A stretch of DNA of 64,000 nt from Escherichia coli (GTDB lineage Bacteria > Pseudomonadota > Gammaproteobacteria > Enterobacterales > Enterobacteriaceae): the NCBI GenBank assembly GCA_023061495.1, contig GCA_023061495.1_3643.1; one strand, written 5' to 3'. Below the pieces are notes generated by a model. That model was given only the letters and a program-made list of their open reading frames with translations. It did no database searches and was not told the origin of the DNA. The position numbers were made by a program, and so were the translations under genes. This document shows positions 3,000-50,509 of the stretch, piece after piece. Position 1 is the stretch's first letter. Each line of letters opens with the position of its first letter.

Positions 3000-3425
3000 G
3001 TGGCAGCAGGTTATAAGCTGATAGGAAAGAACAGACTAATACCTCGTAAAACATTCAAAGGTCGCCACAGAGTGTATAACAAAACAGTTGGTGGCCCTTT
3101 TGCCAACGAGGGGTTAGAACTTGAGTATGAAGAGTTTGATGTCTTAGAGTGTGTTGTGCAACCGTTGACAGGAAGGGCAGCTAAAGATTACTCCTCTCAA
3201 ATAAATCCTGAAGGTGACAGACAGTACGAGGCTTTTACAGTTTACTCCTCAACCAAGTTGTGCAGTCCAGATGAAGGAACATATGCAATGGCTGATCAAA
3301 TTCAGCTGCCTGACATCCGTGGTGACTTGAAATGGTTTACCGTTTTAAAATGCGATGCATATGTCACATCTGGCGGTGGAAGATATAGATTTTTTGTGGT
3401 GGAAGAGCCTGAAGGAGAAAACTAA
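3000..3425 (+). CDS. putative neck/tail-completion protein
   Basis: GTG start 3000 preceded by AAGGGGG; 141 aa; within head-tail gene run. Confidence 0.45.
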   Translation: MAAGYKLIGKNRLIPRKTFKGRHRVYNKTVGGPFANEGLELEYEEFDVLECVVQPLTGRAAKDYSSQINPEGDRQYEAFTVYSSTKLCSPDEGTYAMADQIQLPDIRGDLKWFTVLKCDAYVTSGGGRYRFFVVEEPEGEN

Positions 3426-43430: not shown

Positions 43431-43449
43431 CAAGGGGGTAAATAAAAAA

Positions 43450-43476
43450 GGGGCCAAACGGCCCCTTTCTTTTTAT
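43450..43476. terminator. bidirectional rho-independent terminator between convergent transcription units
   Basis: GGGGCC-AAAC-GGCCCC hairpin flanked by an A-run upstream and a T-run downstream; separates the + strand structural genes from the - strand early genes. Confidence 0.7.
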
Positions 43477-44253: not shown

Positions 44254-44634
44254 TTATGACACTTTGACGTAGCGCTCTGACAAAGCTGGAAAGCCAACAG
44301 CAGTACCTATGCTGCCGTATGCTATCCACCATTGAAGTTCATCGTGACACCATTTTCCGATCAGAAAGGTGCTGGGGTAGCGAGTCAGTATTTTGGCATA
44401 AGCTTTAGGGTCTGCATCCTCTGGGATAATGATGCTTGGAGCATCTTTGTTATGACCACAGCAGCAGTTTATAGTTTTCAATCCTGCCGCCCATAGACTC
44501 ATGATAGGCTTAGCCATGCACTTATCAAGGCACACACGTTTTTTGCAGTCACGGAGCTTTTTAGGCACATCAACGATAACATTTGGATGCTTGGCACCTT
44601 TAACTTTCCAATTATAGGATTTACACTTGCACAT
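44254..44634 (-). CDS. hypothetical Cys-rich protein
   Basis: 126 aa, RBS GGAGA; about 11 Cys including CKCK and CCCGH motifs. Confidence 0.45.
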   Translation of the reverse strand: MCKCKSYNWKVKGAKHPNVIVDVPKKLRDCKKRVCLDKCMAKPIMSLWAAGLKTINCCCGHNKDAPSIIIPEDADPKAYAKILTRYPSTFLIGKWCHDELQWWIAYGSIGTAVGFPALSERYVKVS

Positions 44635-44856: not shown

Positions 44857-45332
44857 GGCTCTTTCTCCGGTTCAGGATCTGGGTAATCTTCAATAATAAA
44901 GGGCCATCCGTTACGCTTAGCGTCAGACTTATACTCAATTTCCTTCATTGCAAACTCTAACTGATTCTTAGCCGGAATGCAAGCTGGAGAATCATCAACC
45001 CAGATGTCTGGGTAGATATCAAACTGCGCCAGATAAGCGGCCTTCTGAACGCCTCCAGTATAAAACACTCCAACATCGAGCTCCTTGCGCCAGTATTCGA
45101 TGTCCACGTTGTCTTGAGTGATGAATCGGAAAGTCACAAGATAGACTGTCCACCCCTCCTTCTTCAGGTCCTTAATAAGGCGGGAGAAGATGAAAGGGCT
45201 CGCATTAAACGTTCCATCAAAGTCAATAGCAATGATATGCGTGCAGTGACGAGTCTCATATGGATTGCTCGTGGTGAGATTGCTGTAGTTAAAAGGTACT
45301 TCTTCTCCGCAGTAGCTGTAGTCCATATTCAC
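44853..45332 (-). CDS. HAD-superfamily phosphatase-like protein
   Basis: 159 aa; motif I IAIDFDGTF (DxDGT) and later WVDDS; RBS GAGAAGGTG. Confidence 0.5.
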   Translation of the reverse strand: MNMDYSYCGEEVPFNYSNLTTSNPYETRHCTHIIAIDFDGTFNASPFIFSRLIKDLKKEGWTVYLVTFRFITQDNVDIEYWRKELDVGVFYTGGVQKAAYLAQFDIYPDIWVDDSPACIPAKNQLEFAMKEIEYKSDAKRNGWPFIIEDYPDPEPEKEP

Positions 45333-45604
45333 ACCTTCTCGTTGATAAATTTACGGGCGGTTTGGTGAGTTGTTTCTGCTGTCTTCAGAATGATATTAAT
45401 TTTATTGTCAAGATCATTCATCTCAGCAGTTAATTCAGGAATCTCTCCAGCATGCATGGTGAAATCATACATAGACATACCCAGGATCTCATTGATTCGG
45501 CGGTTGCATTCTGCAGCACGTTGGTTCATTTTCCAAGCTAACACTAGAGCCTCTTGCGTAGCCTCTAGTGCAAAGTCTAATACGTCAGCTTCTTCTTTCG
45601 TCAT
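45329..45604 (-). CDS. hypothetical protein
   Basis: 91 aa, overlapping stop/start with the downstream gene; function unknown. Confidence 0.45.
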   Translation of the reverse strand: MTKEEADVLDFALEATQEALVLAWKMNQRAAECNRRINEILGMSMYDFTMHAGEIPELTAEMNDLDNKINIILKTAETTHQTARKFINEKV

Positions 45605-45660: not shown

Positions 45661-46227
45661 TTATTCAAACTGCAATAGCAAATCCACCACCGCGCTAGGT
45701 CTGTCAACAAACTCACCGGGCCCACATGCCCACAGAGGGTATCCGTCTACATACCGCCAAATCCAACCTGCAGTGTGGAGTTCTAGCAGGGCAGTACCGT
45801 CCTTACTGTCAACCACTCTTTCCCACAGTGTTGGGCAGCGAAGCTTGAGGATCGGATCCCCTCCCTTATACCCATCCATGTAGATACCCATTGCAAAGTT
45901 CAGCATCATCTTTTTGTGCACTGACCTCTTACTGAGGGTGCTCATCACTTCCTCTTTGTGGATGTTTGTAAGCTTCTCCTTGGCTACCTGCAGATCGTTG
46001 CAGCCATTGTTCAGAAGATCTTCCAGACACTTGACCCGAAGGTCGTGAATATCTTTGTCGTGCACCGTTGGTACAGGGTCGTAGCGATATAGCACTGTTG
46101 ATACAAGGTTGCTCGGGTGTGGGTCTGACAGCAACCCATAACCCCAATACTCCTCTGTATCTGAAAGGACAAGACACCCAATGTCTCTGTCAAGCTTTCC
46201 TGTGTTGTAAGCCACATTGACCGCCAT
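45661..46227 (-). CDS. hypothetical protein
   Basis: 188 aa, RBS GGAG with 8-nt spacer; function unknown. Confidence 0.45.
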   Translation of the reverse strand: MAVNVAYNTGKLDRDIGCLVLSDTEEYWGYGLLSDPHPSNLVSTVLYRYDPVPTVHDKDIHDLRVKCLEDLLNNGCNDLQVAKEKLTNIHKEEVMSTLSKRSVHKKMMLNFAMGIYMDGYKGGDPILKLRCPTLWERVVDSKDGTALLELHTAGWIWRYVDGYPLWACGPGEFVDRPSAVVDLLLQFE

Positions 46228-46229
46228 AA

Positions 46230-46475
46230 TTATAGCTCCACTAGCAAAGTGCTCTCAAAATGCCTCTCATGCAGACCACTATAAGGAACCACTTCCACAA
46301 CACCGTCGCGGATGTATGGAGTCATCATGGTGACATAATCACCGAACGGGTTGGCATTATCACTAACCACGACCACATGCTGCCCCTCCTTGGCAGAGTG
46401 CCAGATAGATCTGCACTTCATCATGTGTTCGAGAGCGCCAGGTAAAATCTTGTTACGTTCTTTACGGGTCTTCAT
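46230..46475 (-). CDS. hypothetical small protein
   Basis: 81 aa; start overlaps upstream gene stop; function unknown. Confidence 0.4.
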   Translation of the reverse strand: MKTRKERNKILPGALEHMMKCRSIWHSAKEGQHVVVVSDNANPFGDYVTMMTPYIRDGVVEVVPYSGLHERHFESTLLVEL

Positions 46476-46921
46476 AACAGATATAGCTCCTTATGAAAGT
46501 GGGCTTTCAATTTCTCACCGAGAAACTTCTTGATACCTTCCTCTAAAGTGTTTTCGATGTAGTCCAGCTTAACTGCTTCGATAGACATATCATAGATCGC
46601 CAGCTCTAAGCTGTCAAGTCCCATCATAGCATGAACCATAAGATTTTCATCTTCAGATACATTCAGGGGACTTCCTATAACATCTGGAGGCAGAATAGTT
46701 TCCCAATTATTCTGGGCGGTAGATCTCCCGCCATCCACCTTACGTCTCAGCTCGAATGTATTCTTAGTGTAGAACACTTCATAAGAAACGATACGACTGT
46801 CACTCTCATAATAGACGAAGTTCAAGTAGGAGCCCAGCCGTAGTCGGCAAACTTCTACCCCAAACCATTGTTTCTTATAAGAATTCAGGCTAATGCTGTC
46901 GCATTCACGTTTGCTCAACAC
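46472..46921 (-). CDS. hypothetical protein
   Basis: 149 aa, GTG start preceded by AAGGAGAGAG; function unknown. Confidence 0.4.
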   Translation of the reverse strand: MLSKRECDSISLNSYKKQWFGVEVCRLRLGSYLNFVYYESDSRIVSYEVFYTKNTFELRRKVDGGRSTAQNNWETILPPDVIGSPLNVSEDENLMVHAMMGLDSLELAIYDMSIEAVKLDYIENTLEEGIKKFLGEKLKAHFHKELYLL

Positions 46922-46937
46922 GGCTCTCTCCTTCTTG

Positions 46938-47171
46938 TTAATCTTCGTAAATAATGATTTCTGCTTTAGGTTTTCGTGCTTTCAGGTCCAGCTCTATCCA
47001 GTGCACCATCGCTGTTTCAAGAAAAACAGCCTGGATGCATCCGTCTTCAGCGTGCCCTACCAGCATAACAAGATCTTCACATTCATCATCTGCATCACGG
47101 ACATACAAGATCTCTCCAGATTCAAAGTCTTTCACAACCTGATTGCTGGATAATTTACGAATTTTTGCCAT
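46938..47171 (-). CDS. small early protein, divergent member of a tandem paralogue family (D)
   Basis: 77 aa; RBS AGAGGG; shares N-terminal basic region and G-x-(V/I)-hydrophobic core pattern with the three 87-aa genes upstream. Confidence 0.45.
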   Translation of the reverse strand: MAKIRKLSSNQVVKDFESGEILYVRDADDECEDLVMLVGHAEDGCIQAVFLETAMVHWIELDLKARKPKAEIIIYED

Positions 47172-47172
47172 A

Positions 47173-47436
47173 TCAGAAACCCTCTAAAAAGCTCTTGTAG
47201 AAAATAATCTCAGTATCCACACCAGTCACGATCTTGTCGTTCCTGATTTCATCTGTAAGATAGGTGTCAAAACGCAGCACCTGTGTGGTATTGTCACACA
47301 TCCACTCGGCTGTTACCATGGCAAAAATCTTAGCATCTTCATTATCTGGTGTAAATGTTACCACCTCACCGCATTTAAACTTTTCGATAGGTTGCGTGTT
47401 AGCTTTTGGTTCTGCAATGGTGATTTTCGTGGTCAT
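47173..47436 (-). CDS. small early protein, tandem paralogue family (C)
   Basis: 87 aa; RBS AGGAGGAG; motif KCGEVVTF aligns with PCGTVVSC and APGTVVMF of the neighbours. Confidence 0.5.
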   Translation of the reverse strand: MTTKITIAEPKANTQPIEKFKCGEVVTFTPDNEDAKIFAMVTAEWMCDNTTQVLRFDTYLTDEIRNDKIVTGVDTEIIFYKSFLEGF

Positions 47437-47699
47437 TATTCTCCTCCTTCTTTTGAATAGCTTGTCTCTCCAAGGATGGTAATTTTGGTGTCAAGCTCTG
47501 TAACTTTCATGTTTGGTGGCAGATCGTACAACTCATTATTTTCTAAATCGAACCCCCATACACAATGTTCCCCTGTTTTGACAATCATAACTATGTTTTG
47601 AATGCCGTCTCCGTCACAACTTACCACGGTCCCACATGGAAAACTGTCTGCACGCTTTTTGTTCTTCACTTTAGAATTGAATACAATGCTAGTAGCCAT
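47436..47699 (-). CDS. small early protein, tandem paralogue family (B)
   Basis: 87 aa; RBS GGAGGA; 1-nt start/stop overlap with neighbours; clear similarity to paralogue A. Confidence 0.5.
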   Translation of the reverse strand: MATSIVFNSKVKNKKRADSFPCGTVVSCDGDGIQNIVMIVKTGEHCVWGFDLENNELYDLPPNMKVTELDTKITILGETSYSKEGGE

Positions 47700-47962
47700 T
47701 ATTGTTCCTCCACCATAACTTCGCCAAGAATTTCTATGCAGGCATCCATTTCTGTAACAACCAAGGTGTGAGGTAGTTCTGCAAACACCTTTCTGAACAG
47801 GTCAAATACCCCAACATATATGTTTGCAGGATGTGATCTCACAACAAGTGCTGTATTCACATCTCCAAGTTCATCAACAAACATCACCACAGTACCTGGA
47901 GCTACTGAAGACAGATACTTCTTAGTTTTACGGTTGGATGCAAATTTTAACTCTGTTGCCAT
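47699..47962 (-). CDS. small early protein, tandem paralogue family (A)
   Basis: 87 aa; RBS GGAGGAG; MATELKFASNRKTKKY...APGTVVMF...VGVFDL...LGE. Confidence 0.5.
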   Translation of the reverse strand: MATELKFASNRKTKKYLSSVAPGTVVMFVDELGDVNTALVVRSHPANIYVGVFDLFRKVFAELPHTLVVTEMDACIEILGEVMVEEQ

Positions 47963-47977
47963 AAATAATCTCCTCCT

Positions 47978-49438
47978 TTATTTAACGTACTCGATTAATT
48001 CCACAGTTTTCCCAAAGCTCGGGATATAATTTTTATTATACCCTTCAGTGAGAACCCATAAAGTATCGTACTTTTTCCACTTGTTGTCAACAGCCTTTTG
48101 TTCAAAGTTATGCTCAAAGTAGAGATCGGTAAGGACGATGACATCTTTTGCATTCGGTATGTTAGCATCCAGATACTCGAACACGCAGGCGGCTGTTGTG
48201 CCCCATGTTGAGTGGACCTCATAGTTGATCATCTCATCGATGTTACCGCGAGTGTATACTTTAACCTCTCCAACCTCGGTTGACCAACAGAACATCGTAA
48301 CCTTAAACTCTTTATACAAATTGCACAACCCGGTGATCTCATTAAACATTTTCTTTAAAGTTCTTTGTGAGATCGATCCAGAAACGTCTAAAGCCACTAC
48401 AATATCTATAGTGTTTTCCGGATTACGACCAGGAACAATAACGTGTTGATTCTTGTTTATAGCTCCAACTTTTCGCATTGTGGTGGTCAAAGACCCAGAT
48501 CGGCGACCAGGTTTTCTGTAGGTTAACTCAGCCTTTCTTTTAGATAACATACGTTGCTTAATAATATCTATATAATTGATTACAGGCTTGCCTCTGTTTT
48601 TGACAAACTCGCGCACCGCCTCGGGGCAACGACCTCCTGAAGCTTGCATTGCTGCTTCCAACATGTCACCAGAATCCTGCATGGCCTGATCTTTATCAGA
48701 TTGACTGATTACTGGTTGCGGCTGATCATACCCCATAGCCTTTCCAAGATCATCACTAGTGCCACCGTTCCCGCTCATGTGATCATCGGTTTGTCGTTTA
48801 TCTCCTTGGGAGTTCTCACCTTTACCGTTCTTACTTTTACCGCCATTCTGATCTCTTTGTTTATCAAGAACTGCATAGACGTTCTCAGCAATCCATCCAT
48901 GAAACTTCATGTCGCAGTAGCAATTAGCTAAGAAGCCAAAAGGCTTACCTTTTACGAACTCAGTGCTTTTCCCCTTCGGGAAGAAAACACAAGGAGGCTT
49001 GCTAAAGTCAACCACAAGACCTGTGTTGATAACGTGATCACAAGCAATATTGAACAGTTCCGGCTCAAAGCTTTTACCACGGACCAGATGATCACAGATA
49101 ATATGCCCCACCTCATGTGACAGAAGAAATGCCACCTCTTTCACAGATTTTGGGGAATAGAAAACCTCAGCCATCTCAAACTGCTTGTCAGTCAGAGATG
49201 CTTTAAGAATGGTTTTACGCTCATCTGCCAACCCCATAATGAACTCAGGGCTGTAGTAGATGCGTTTATGGTCTGTTGCCATAGTGGAGCACCATGTGTG
49301 GTTTTCTACGAACTGCAACCCTGACAACAGTGTGCCATAAAACGGCAGCTTTTCAAGAAGATACATGCGAGCGGCCTGCAGCATTCGCAAGGCATCATCT
49401 TTTTGTGCGGTAATGATTTCTGAACTTCTGCTATCCAT
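47978..49438 (-). CDS. vWA-domain protein with N-terminal HExxH metallopeptidase-like motif
   Basis: ATG at 49438 preceded by GGAG, chosen over the track's TTG at 49459; HEVGH zinc motif; MIDAS-type VVALDVSGSIS. Confidence 0.6.
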   Translation of the reverse strand: MDSRSSEIITAQKDDALRMLQAARMYLLEKLPFYGTLLSGLQFVENHTWCSTMATDHKRIYYSPEFIMGLADERKTILKASLTDKQFEMAEVFYSPKSVKEVAFLLSHEVGHIICDHLVRGKSFEPELFNIACDHVINTGLVVDFSKPPCVFFPKGKSTEFVKGKPFGFLANCYCDMKFHGWIAENVYAVLDKQRDQNGGKSKNGKGENSQGDKRQTDDHMSGNGGTSDDLGKAMGYDQPQPVISQSDKDQAMQDSGDMLEAAMQASGGRCPEAVREFVKNRGKPVINYIDIIKQRMLSKRKAELTYRKPGRRSGSLTTTMRKVGAINKNQHVIVPGRNPENTIDIVVALDVSGSISQRTLKKMFNEITGLCNLYKEFKVTMFCWSTEVGEVKVYTRGNIDEMINYEVHSTWGTTAACVFEYLDANIPNAKDVIVLTDLYFEHNFEQKAVDNKWKKYDTLWVLTEGYNKNYIPSFGKTVELIEYVK

Positions 49439-49471
49439 TAAAACTCCAGAAGGGGCCAATGGCCCCTGTCA

Positions 49472-50449
49472 TTATTTAACGTGCTTGAAAATACCAGCCA
49501 ACTCGGTCATTGTCATGCGGGTGGTCTTCATAAGGTCTGTCATAGCTTTTTCCATGATTGGAGATACCACCATGAAGTTACCTTTGGTGAAACCTTTGTT
49601 CCAGTCGGTAACTAATAGTGGTTTAAGTCCGGCCCCGAGACGCTCACCAGTTAAAGCACAACATTTTCGAATGTATGTGCTCTTAAATTGGCTGAACGAC
49701 AGATCAACTTTCATGCCTACATCGTAGAACGTTTGACAATAGAAGGTGTAAGCTTTGGCAATCTCAACATCATCAGGTAGTGCAGGAACCTCTTCTGTAA
49801 GCCCCTCTTCGACCTCCTGAGTCTCTTTTTCCTCTTCATGTACCTGTTGCGTCATTTCTTCAATCTCTTCTGCGATAGGTTCGTTTACAATGTCAGAAAT
49901 GTGCTTCTTGGGTGCACGATAAGTAACTTTAGACATAGGTAGCATATCTTCCTCCTCTTCTTCGTCAAAGAGTGCTAGTTTATCCTCTTCCGTTCCATAT
50001 TGCAAGATGAAATCTTCAAAAGTATAATCACCTTTCAATTTCTCCATACGCTCTTCGCTCAGGTGGAGCATCATCTGCTGGACAATTTTTCGATCAGTTT
50101 TGTCTTTAATCAAGACTGCGGTCTTTTTATCTACCAGACAGTCCTTCAGGGAGTTGCACCTTAACCCAACCACACAACAGTTATCAATTGCGTAAGGACC
50201 TTCATCATCTATCCGCTCTAAGGATGGGTAGAAAGGATTCCCCAACCCGTTTTCATCTGTGTGCATGTCAAAAGGTATAAGGGTATAGTCGCACACCCCC
50301 TCTCCTAAAAGTTTTTTACCAAATAGGAGGTATTCTTCCCATGACAGGTTGAACTCTATATCTCGTTTCCGTGCATTATTTTGTTTGCGTCTGTATTTTT
50401 TTAGCAGGCGCTCTAATTCTTCTGGTGTATAATATTTTTCAAGATTCAT
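49472..50449 (-). CDS. first early gene of the minus-strand unit; protein with degenerate HNH-like motif and acidic linker
   Basis: ATG at 50449 lies about 25 nt downstream of the predicted minus-strand transcription start; the track's TTG at 50515 would precede the promoter; motif SLERIDDEGPYAIDNCCVVGLRCNSLK. Confidence 0.45.
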   Translation of the reverse strand: MNLEKYYTPEELERLLKKYRRKQNNARKRDIEFNLSWEEYLLFGKKLLGEGVCDYTLIPFDMHTDENGLGNPFYPSLERIDDEGPYAIDNCCVVGLRCNSLKDCLVDKKTAVLIKDKTDRKIVQQMMLHLSEERMEKLKGDYTFEDFILQYGTEEDKLALFDEEEEEDMLPMSKVTYRAPKKHISDIVNEPIAEEIEEMTQQVHEEEKETQEVEEGLTEEVPALPDDVEIAKAYTFYCQTFYDVGMKVDLSFSQFKSTYIRKCCALTGERLGAGLKPLLVTDWNKGFTKGNFMVVSPIMEKAMTDLMKTTRMTMTELAGIFKHVK

Positions 50450-50480
50450 AAGTTGTCTCTTGTGCTTTGTAGGTGAAGAA

Positions 50481-50509
50481 ATCTTATCAAGTGCCTCAAC
50501 AGATGTCAA
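50481..50509 (-). promoter_or_regulatory. early promoter, minus strand (TTGACA, 17 bp, TAAGAT)
   Basis: Minus-strand -35 TTGACA (50509-50504), spacer 17, -10 TAAGAT (50486-50481); back to back with the plus-strand promoter. Confidence 0.55.

Follow-up and report, generated by a model that had tools for sequence, protein, structure and literature searches.

Small paralogous proteins encoded in tandem within a putative early operon of rV5-like Escherichia coli phages

Few E. coli phages are isolated as often as those related to rV5, which serve in cocktails for therapy and biocontrol. To our knowledge, most of their early genes are uncharacterised. In the window, the whole stretch of 64,000 nucleotides analyzed here, four small genes (A to D) follow one another in a tandem array. 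The original prediction had described them as diversified paralogous early genes of no recognisable family, of a kind often involved in host takeover or anti-defence. The locus raises the question of whether A to D belong to one family, and what such a family might contribute to infection.

Organization of the array and its operon

The position and anatomy of the four-gene array were correct as originally described, and all four genes are encoded on the minus strand (Table 1). Over the 3.5 kb containing the array (46000-49500), the window shared 99.6% identity with Escherichia phage vB_EcoM-ECP26 and 93-94% with about 100 further rV5-like phages (genus Vequintavirus). In the annotated rV5-like records examined, A to D are annotated as 'hypothetical protein'.

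Table 1. Coordinates of the array, its flanking genes, and the borders of its transcription unit in the window
Feature	Position	Strand	Description
Gene A	47699-47962	minus	87 aa; phrog_10698; first gene of the variable cassette
Gene B	47436-47699	minus	87 aa; phrog_10698; second gene of the variable cassette
Gene C	47173-47436	minus	87 aa; phrog_12861; divergent paralog, fixed, highly conserved
Gene D	46938-47171	minus	77 aa; phrog_12046; most divergent paralog, fixed, conserved
Polymorphic cassette A+B	47440-47965		Sliding identity, haplotype table, genome counts
DUF2201_N metallopeptidase + DUF2201 VWA-like protein (rV5 gp12 homolog)	47978-49438	minus	Conserved upstream flank of the array
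rV5 gp17 homolog	46472-46921	minus	149 aa, GTG start; conserved downstream flank of the array
Srd-like protein, annotated 'anti-sigma factor' (rV5 gp11 homolog)	49472-50461	minus	First gene of the unit; annotations
Sigma70-type promoter TTGACA-17-TAAGAT, extended -10 TG	50481-50509	minus	Scan match; aligns with annotated rV5 P11; heads the unit of the array
Bidirectional intrinsic terminator closing the unit	43447-43468		Corresponds to annotated rV5 terminators after ORF 26

Overlaps of 1 nt were found between A and B and between B and C (TAATG), whereas C and D are separated by a 1-nt spacer (TGAtATG). The Shine-Dalgarno sites of the array genes are strong, as had been claimed: AAGGAGGAG precedes A and also C, GGAGGA precedes B, and GAGGG precedes D. 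For B, C, and D, the site falls within the final codons of the gene before (VEEQ, KEGGE, and LEGF, each followed by the stop codon). Because the Shine-Dalgarno site of the next gene is embedded there, the E/G-rich C-terminal likeness of A to D is partly a by-product of translational coupling. The LGE-type C-terminus attributed to the whole array occurs as 'ILGE' in A and B only, and not in C or D.

In rV5, genes 11-26 were described as one unit with sigma70-type promoters and a bidirectional terminator (PMC3606486). No terminator-like site was found on the coding strand between the P11 homolog and the array. The location of A to D inside this rV5-defined unit, behind a conserved sigma70-type promoter, suggests that they are probably expressed early, as the label 'early' implies. 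The Srd-like protein had no match in Pfam or NCBIfam, and the rV5 gp12 homolog contained the Pfam domains PF13203 (E=1e-28) and PF09967 (E=4e-11), with 97-99% amino-acid identity across Vequintavirus. Besides the Srd-like and DUF2201 proteins, all genes of the unit are function-unknown.

The virion proteins named in the main text of the rV5 paper do not include those of the array, and the terms gp14 to gp17 are absent from the accessible part of its supplementary files. No reports on expression, transcriptome, essentiality, interaction, toxicity, or knockout of A to D were found in the literature searched, which covered the rV5 genome paper and BASEL as well as the EdH4 Cas13a and CRISPRi-ART studies, a host-factor screen with LL12, another screen of accessory genes, and work on daunorubicin.

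Relationship and predicted fold of the paralogs

The proposal of four tandem paralogs was borne out by profile, shuffle, and iterative searches. The members had been called clearly related, which holds in pairwise comparison for A and B (38% identity; Smith-Waterman score of 98 versus 23±4 in shuffles, z=18), while C and D are connected only by profiles (pairwise z of 0.5-4.5). The profiles included A', an 85-aa variant that occupies the place of A and B in other phages and is 39-41% identical to both. An HMM of A, B, and A', from which C was left out, scored C at E=2.4e-4 (next match at 0.35 among the 659 six-frame ORFs of the window), and hhalign aligned C with the A/B/A' family at E=3e-5. 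After inclusion of C, the HMM scored D at E=7.5e-5 (next match at 0.13 among the window ORFs), and D was aligned with the A/B/A'/C profile by hhalign with a probability of 79.5% and E=1.5e-5 over 70 columns (70 of its 77 residues). With shallow alignments, D was not significant in hhalign, and significance was obtained only after adding the A' variants and C. Word-indexed homolog searches with A, C, and D gave only relatives at least 79% identical, so that no profile depth was gained.

In the shuffle test, none of 5000 shuffles reached the real score for either protein (D, 18.2 bits versus a maximum of 11.1; C, 17.4 versus 9.8). Additionally, an unsupervised jackhmmer search started from rV5 gp14 recovered B and A, then C, then D, and no fifth ORF in the window. 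These results indicate that A, B, A', C, and D constitute one paralogous family that is collinear over nearly the full length, with D linked only transitively. The 81-aa gene at 46230-46475, two positions downstream of D, contains 'GQHVVVV', which recalls the G-x-V-V motif of the family; it was ruled out as a fifth member (E=0.7 in jackhmmer on the window).

The G-x-V-V core said to be shared by all four is present in A and B (GTVV) and in C (GEVV), whereas D reads GEIL. Similarly, a basic N-terminus was found in A and B (+4 in the first 20 residues) and barely in C and D (+1). As whole proteins, A to D are acidic (pI 4.5-5.0) with masses of about 9-10 kDa, and the residues common to the paralogs are mainly glycine and hydrophobic strand positions. 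Synonymous sites are saturated between the paralogs, which share 21-38% identity, indicating that they are old. A recent origin of A' by recombination of A and B was ruled out, as either half of A' lies at a similar distance from A and from B (alignment read by eye) and its synonymous sites are saturated.

The AF2 model of A was all-beta with six strands (pLDDT 78.5), and that of D was also all-beta (pLDDT 71.9, moderate confidence). Of 75 aligned positions, 56 had the same DSSP state in the two models, the best agreement being obtained at shift 0, and in both a long N-terminal strand lies outside the barrel. On the basis of these models, A and D are predicted to be SH3/Tudor-like small barrels, i.e., five-stranded, strongly bent antiparallel structures of about 60 residues. 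Small beta-barrels of this type include the Tudor domains of SMN and TDRD3, the C-terminal domain of ribosomal protein L2, and the C-terminal Tudor domain of UvrD, which binds the beta lobe of RNA polymerase. Tudor domains proper carry a cage of three to four aromatics in the beta1-beta2 and beta3-beta4 loops, whereas aromatic residues are not conserved across the alignment of A to D. The features of ring-forming Sm/Hfq barrels (an N-terminal alpha-helix followed by Sm1/Sm2 motifs, hexamer or heptamer) and of the SH3-like toxins CcdB, MazF, and Kid (a barrel of about 100-115 aa, a family-level sequence match, and a cognate antitoxin gene) were not found.

In a Foldseek comparison with BFVD, the model of A matched many small phage proteins (70-90 aa; E=9e-4 to 4e-2, TM-score 0.5-0.7), all uncharacterised, and the match list of D overlaps that of A partly and weakly among these predicted viral structures. 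The matched proteins, from Serratia phage Hera, Vibrio phage Thalassa, and Pseudomonas phage PaP3 (ORF.65), as well as Escherichia phages LAMP, SU7, and ECBP2 among others, resemble A in size and predicted fold. However, they differ from the family in sequence (9-25% identity), and none was recovered by an HMM search of 1.84 billion representative proteins. Since no matched protein has a known function, this resemblance adds no mechanism.

Distribution, conservation, and an exchangeable slot

No recognisable family was found for A to D, in agreement with the original prediction: searches of Pfam, NCBIfam, PADLOC, and PDB sequences were empty, and only three function-unknown PHROGs matched. Specifically, no known family of phage defence or of defence-associated proteins was matched in PADLOC-DB, Pfam, NCBIfam, or PDB sequences, and no transmembrane or enzymatic family in Pfam or NCBIfam. 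The PHROG matches were full-length (E=1e-41 to 1e-62), with phrog_10698 matching A, B, and A', phrog_12861 matching C, and phrog_12046 matching D. These entries are the same proteins catalogued from rV5-like phages, with no function attached. PHROGs treats the three families as unrelated, whereas the profile evidence presented here joins them into one.

The family is narrowly distributed. The exhaustive HMM search of the 1.84 billion representative proteins recovered only Vequintavirus-type clusters (A, B-like, A'-like, and C); the single outside match, a 1095-aa repeat protein, was a false positive. When IMG/VR was scanned with family alignments for A/B, for C, and for D, only the same two rV5-like contigs were found, and tblastn with A, B, C, and D (E<=1) against 50,697 phage records found no real relative outside 118 Vequintavirus records. 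By contrast, the adjacent metallopeptidase occurs in 626 records. In Salmonella phage PVP-SE1, the metallopeptidase and the gp17 homolog lie side by side with no array between them and the MoxR ATPase is kept; no family members were found in the regions compared from PVP-SE1 and phage RB49.

Copy number varies among related phages, as had been anticipated. Genes C (at least 90% identity) and D (at least 80% identity) were present in all 118 related genomes and, according to the haplotype table, are always adjacent to each other in Vequintavirus. Gene A (at least 80% identity) was found in 44 of the 118, always together with B, and in the other 74, including rV5 (gp14), a single A' replaces the pair. 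Between the window and rV5, identity fell to 5-6% only within about 47440-47965 and was 91-98% on both sides. Thus, the first slot is filled by one of two alternative, sharply bounded cassettes, A+B or A', and is the only polymorphic slot of the array. Phages of either haplotype have been isolated with E. coli K-12 as host.

An 18-nt imperfect direct repeat (15 of 18 positions identical; 47437-47454 and 47966-47983) brackets the A+B cassette exactly and consists of the Shine-Dalgarno regions of C and A. It was not read as a recombination signal, since neither the A' haplotype nor L007, a divergent Vequintavirus lineage known from metagenomes, conserves it. Its absence from both suggests that it is probably only a similarity of ribosome-binding sites.

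In the anti-CRISPR-type loci of Mu-like Pseudomonas phages, alternative small-gene cassettes occupy a fixed position between conserved phage genes. Likewise, A+B and A' alternate in one slot with gene-precise boundaries in DNA that is otherwise 91-98% identical. Unlike in those loci, however, the alternative cassettes are homologous to each other, no Aca-like helix-turn-helix gene is present, and the neighboring members C and D are invariant.

The members had been called diversified, which is not supported in the sense of an arms race. Every member is under purifying selection, with a pooled pN/pS of 0.33 for A, 0.22 for B, 0.07 for A', 0.034 for C, and 0.09 for D, and the fixed genes C and D are among the most conserved of the operon. 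C is 100% identical to rV5 gp15 at pS=0.47. In the L007 lineage, C and D are 96.6% and 92% identical, respectively, whereas the other eight genes compared are 37-82% identical (A and B, 56-64%). With a fixed, strongly constrained C/D pair beside one exchangeable slot, the family is not uniformly diversifying.

Strong conservation was also seen in two other genes of the operon, the homologs of gp20 (45329-45604) and gp19 (45661-46227), which are 100% (at pS 0.22) and 98.9% identical to their rV5 counterparts. Their identity in the L007 lineage is only 37% and 55%, suggesting that constraint on them, unlike that on C and D, is lineage-specific.

Relatives were also found in an uncultured Vequintavirinae-like lineage, represented by three Logan metagenome contigs (L019-L021), which is absent from the 50,697 GenBank phage records. 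Its C-like gene (3001-3279) lies upstream of an Srd-like gene and is preceded by two adjacent 142-aa genes. In L019, this lone gene is upstream of the metallopeptidase and separated from it by three genes. It is 83% identical to C (pN 0.089), whereas its neighbors, the Srd-like protein (41%), the metallopeptidase (43%), and p142b (65%), are less identical to their counterparts (pN 0.24-0.43). The C-like gene also has a lower pS (0.61 versus 0.77-0.90 in the neighbors), so that horizontal transfer may to some extent have contributed to its high identity.

In addition, an A'-like gene (63% identical to rV5 gp14) was found in another small-gene neighborhood of apparently the same lineage as L019, on a 2.7-kb metagenome contig (L010; features at 1355-1606 and 2070-2307). 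It lies beside a gene for a Cys-rich 143-aa protein, which is 94% identical to p142b of L019 and 53-65% identical to the product of the window gene at 44254-44634. The contig also includes a segment sharing 84% identity with a part of phage RB49 (Krischvirus) in which small hypothetical genes are located. The RB49-like segment beside the A'-like gene suggests that unrelated groups of E. coli phages have exchanged small genes. The C-like gene on L019 and the A'-like gene on L010 are both solitary, as no further family member occurs within 3-6 kb. Their single occurrence in other neighborhoods of an uncultured related lineage suggests that family members can function on their own.

Candidate functions

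We tentatively favor a reading, which could well prove wrong, in which A to D are non-enzymatic binding proteins of a sigma70-driven early operon, with C and D acting on invariant targets and the first slot being accessory. Each paralog would act stoichiometrically as a binding module early in infection, with a different macromolecular target. Such a mode is suggested by the small size of the proteins, which are too small for catalysis, by the lack of a catalytic motif, and by the mainly glycine and hydrophobic strand residues that they share. The invariant targets of C and D might be core host machinery or a conserved phage partner, corresponding to host takeover or regulation, and the A+B/A' slot might serve an accessory purpose, open to exchange, along the lines of counter-defence or competition. 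As read from sequence comparisons, the strong conservation of C and D indicates constraint and not the identity of any bound target. Nevertheless, this extreme conservation gives C and D priority in the search for host components to which the phage has to bind.

A more far-reaching version appears improbable. It holds that C, and perhaps D, is an indispensable takeover factor, a Tudor-like barrel clamping an invariant host machine (RNA polymerase, the ribosome, or RNase E), and that the first slot is a new cassette for anti-defence or inter-phage competition on the same scaffold. If true, clamping of an invariant host machine would explain why C is conserved far above the other early proteins compared, and one small-barrel scaffold would have been reused for core and arms-race functions.

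Three points are new at this locus: three function-unknown PHROG families merge into one, predicted to share a small beta-barrel fold; C and D are unusually conserved; and the first slot holds a clean two-allele cassette. The array is best regarded as a set of small, orphan, probably early phage proteins on a generic barrel scaffold, real but fairly ordinary, with no new mechanism indicated yet. For the rV5-like phage EdH4, Cas13a counter-selection has been demonstrated (PMC9712115). The locus is tractable, and the A+B and A' cassettes could be swapped experimentally for strain-specific phenotypes; if none appeared, the array would be another orphan early-gene family.

Alternatively, all four might be anti-defence proteins, each inhibiting a particular immune system, as in arrays of anti-CRISPR or anti-RM genes. 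Small, acidic, orphan, and probably early proteins, a variable cassette at a fixed position between conserved flanks, and an A'-like gene in a different small-gene neighborhood next to RB49-like DNA are consistent with this view. However, C and D occur throughout the genus, and the nonsynonymous rate of the C-like gene in the uncultured lineage is 3-5 times below that of its neighbors. Both haplotypes plate on the same K-12 hosts, and the searches of Pfam, NCBIfam, and PADLOC were without a match. Furthermore, in the BASEL collection, Vequintavirinae were reported as exceptionally sensitive to restriction-modification and all sensitive to Fun/Z (PMC8594841), which argues against an effective anti-RM role. 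Taken together, an anti-defence function of all four proteins is unlikely.

Somewhat less likely still is a single hetero-oligomer built from the paralogs, with the small barrels arranged as a ring or stack and their amounts matched by tandem order and translational coupling. The one-base overlaps with embedded Shine-Dalgarno sites, the equal lengths, and the constant adjacency of C and D in Vequintavirus fit such an assembly, and the N-terminal strand outside the barrel in the predicted models could pair between subunits. Nevertheless, the number of subunits would be four in one haplotype and three in the other, both of which are viable, and the C-like and A'-like genes of the uncultured lineage stand alone.

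It is very unlikely that A to D serve the adjacent DUF2201 metallopeptidase/VWA protein and its MoxR ATPase partner as adaptors, substrates, or regulators. The array begins 16 bp downstream of the metallopeptidase gene, with which it shares an operon, and the MoxR ATPase is encoded in the divergent unit. However, PVP-SE1 keeps both proteins without a detectable family member in that region, relatives of A to D are confined to 118 Vequintavirus records compared with the 626 containing the metallopeptidase, and the C-like gene of L019 is three genes away on the upstream side. Finally, the idea that the similarity is due to chance, or that the ORFs are not real genes, can practically be dismissed and is already refuted: it could draw on the weak pairwise scores involving C and D and on the shallow hhalign result for D, but the profile, shuffle, and iterative searches picked exactly four ORFs, the predicted strands of A and D are in register, and abundant synonymous change with almost no nonsynonymous change shows that the ORFs are translated.

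The labels given to this locus in databases are erratic. The DUF2201 metallopeptidase/VWA protein is annotated as 'HNH endonuclease', 'anti-sigma factor', or 'metallopeptidase'; phrog_1314 is labelled HNH endonuclease, and Pfam shows DUF2201_N and DUF2201. Different records name the gp17 homolog either 'tail protein' or 'holin', and gene A is labelled 'excinuclease ATPase subunit' in phage B9-1. In addition, sixteen 'Campylobacter phage' records (host C. jejuni), within MG065635-MG065690, match 46000-49500 with an identity of at least 90%. The array is likewise present in those examined. The sixteen, which include records of up to about 143 kb, look mislabelled or derived from contaminated lysates.
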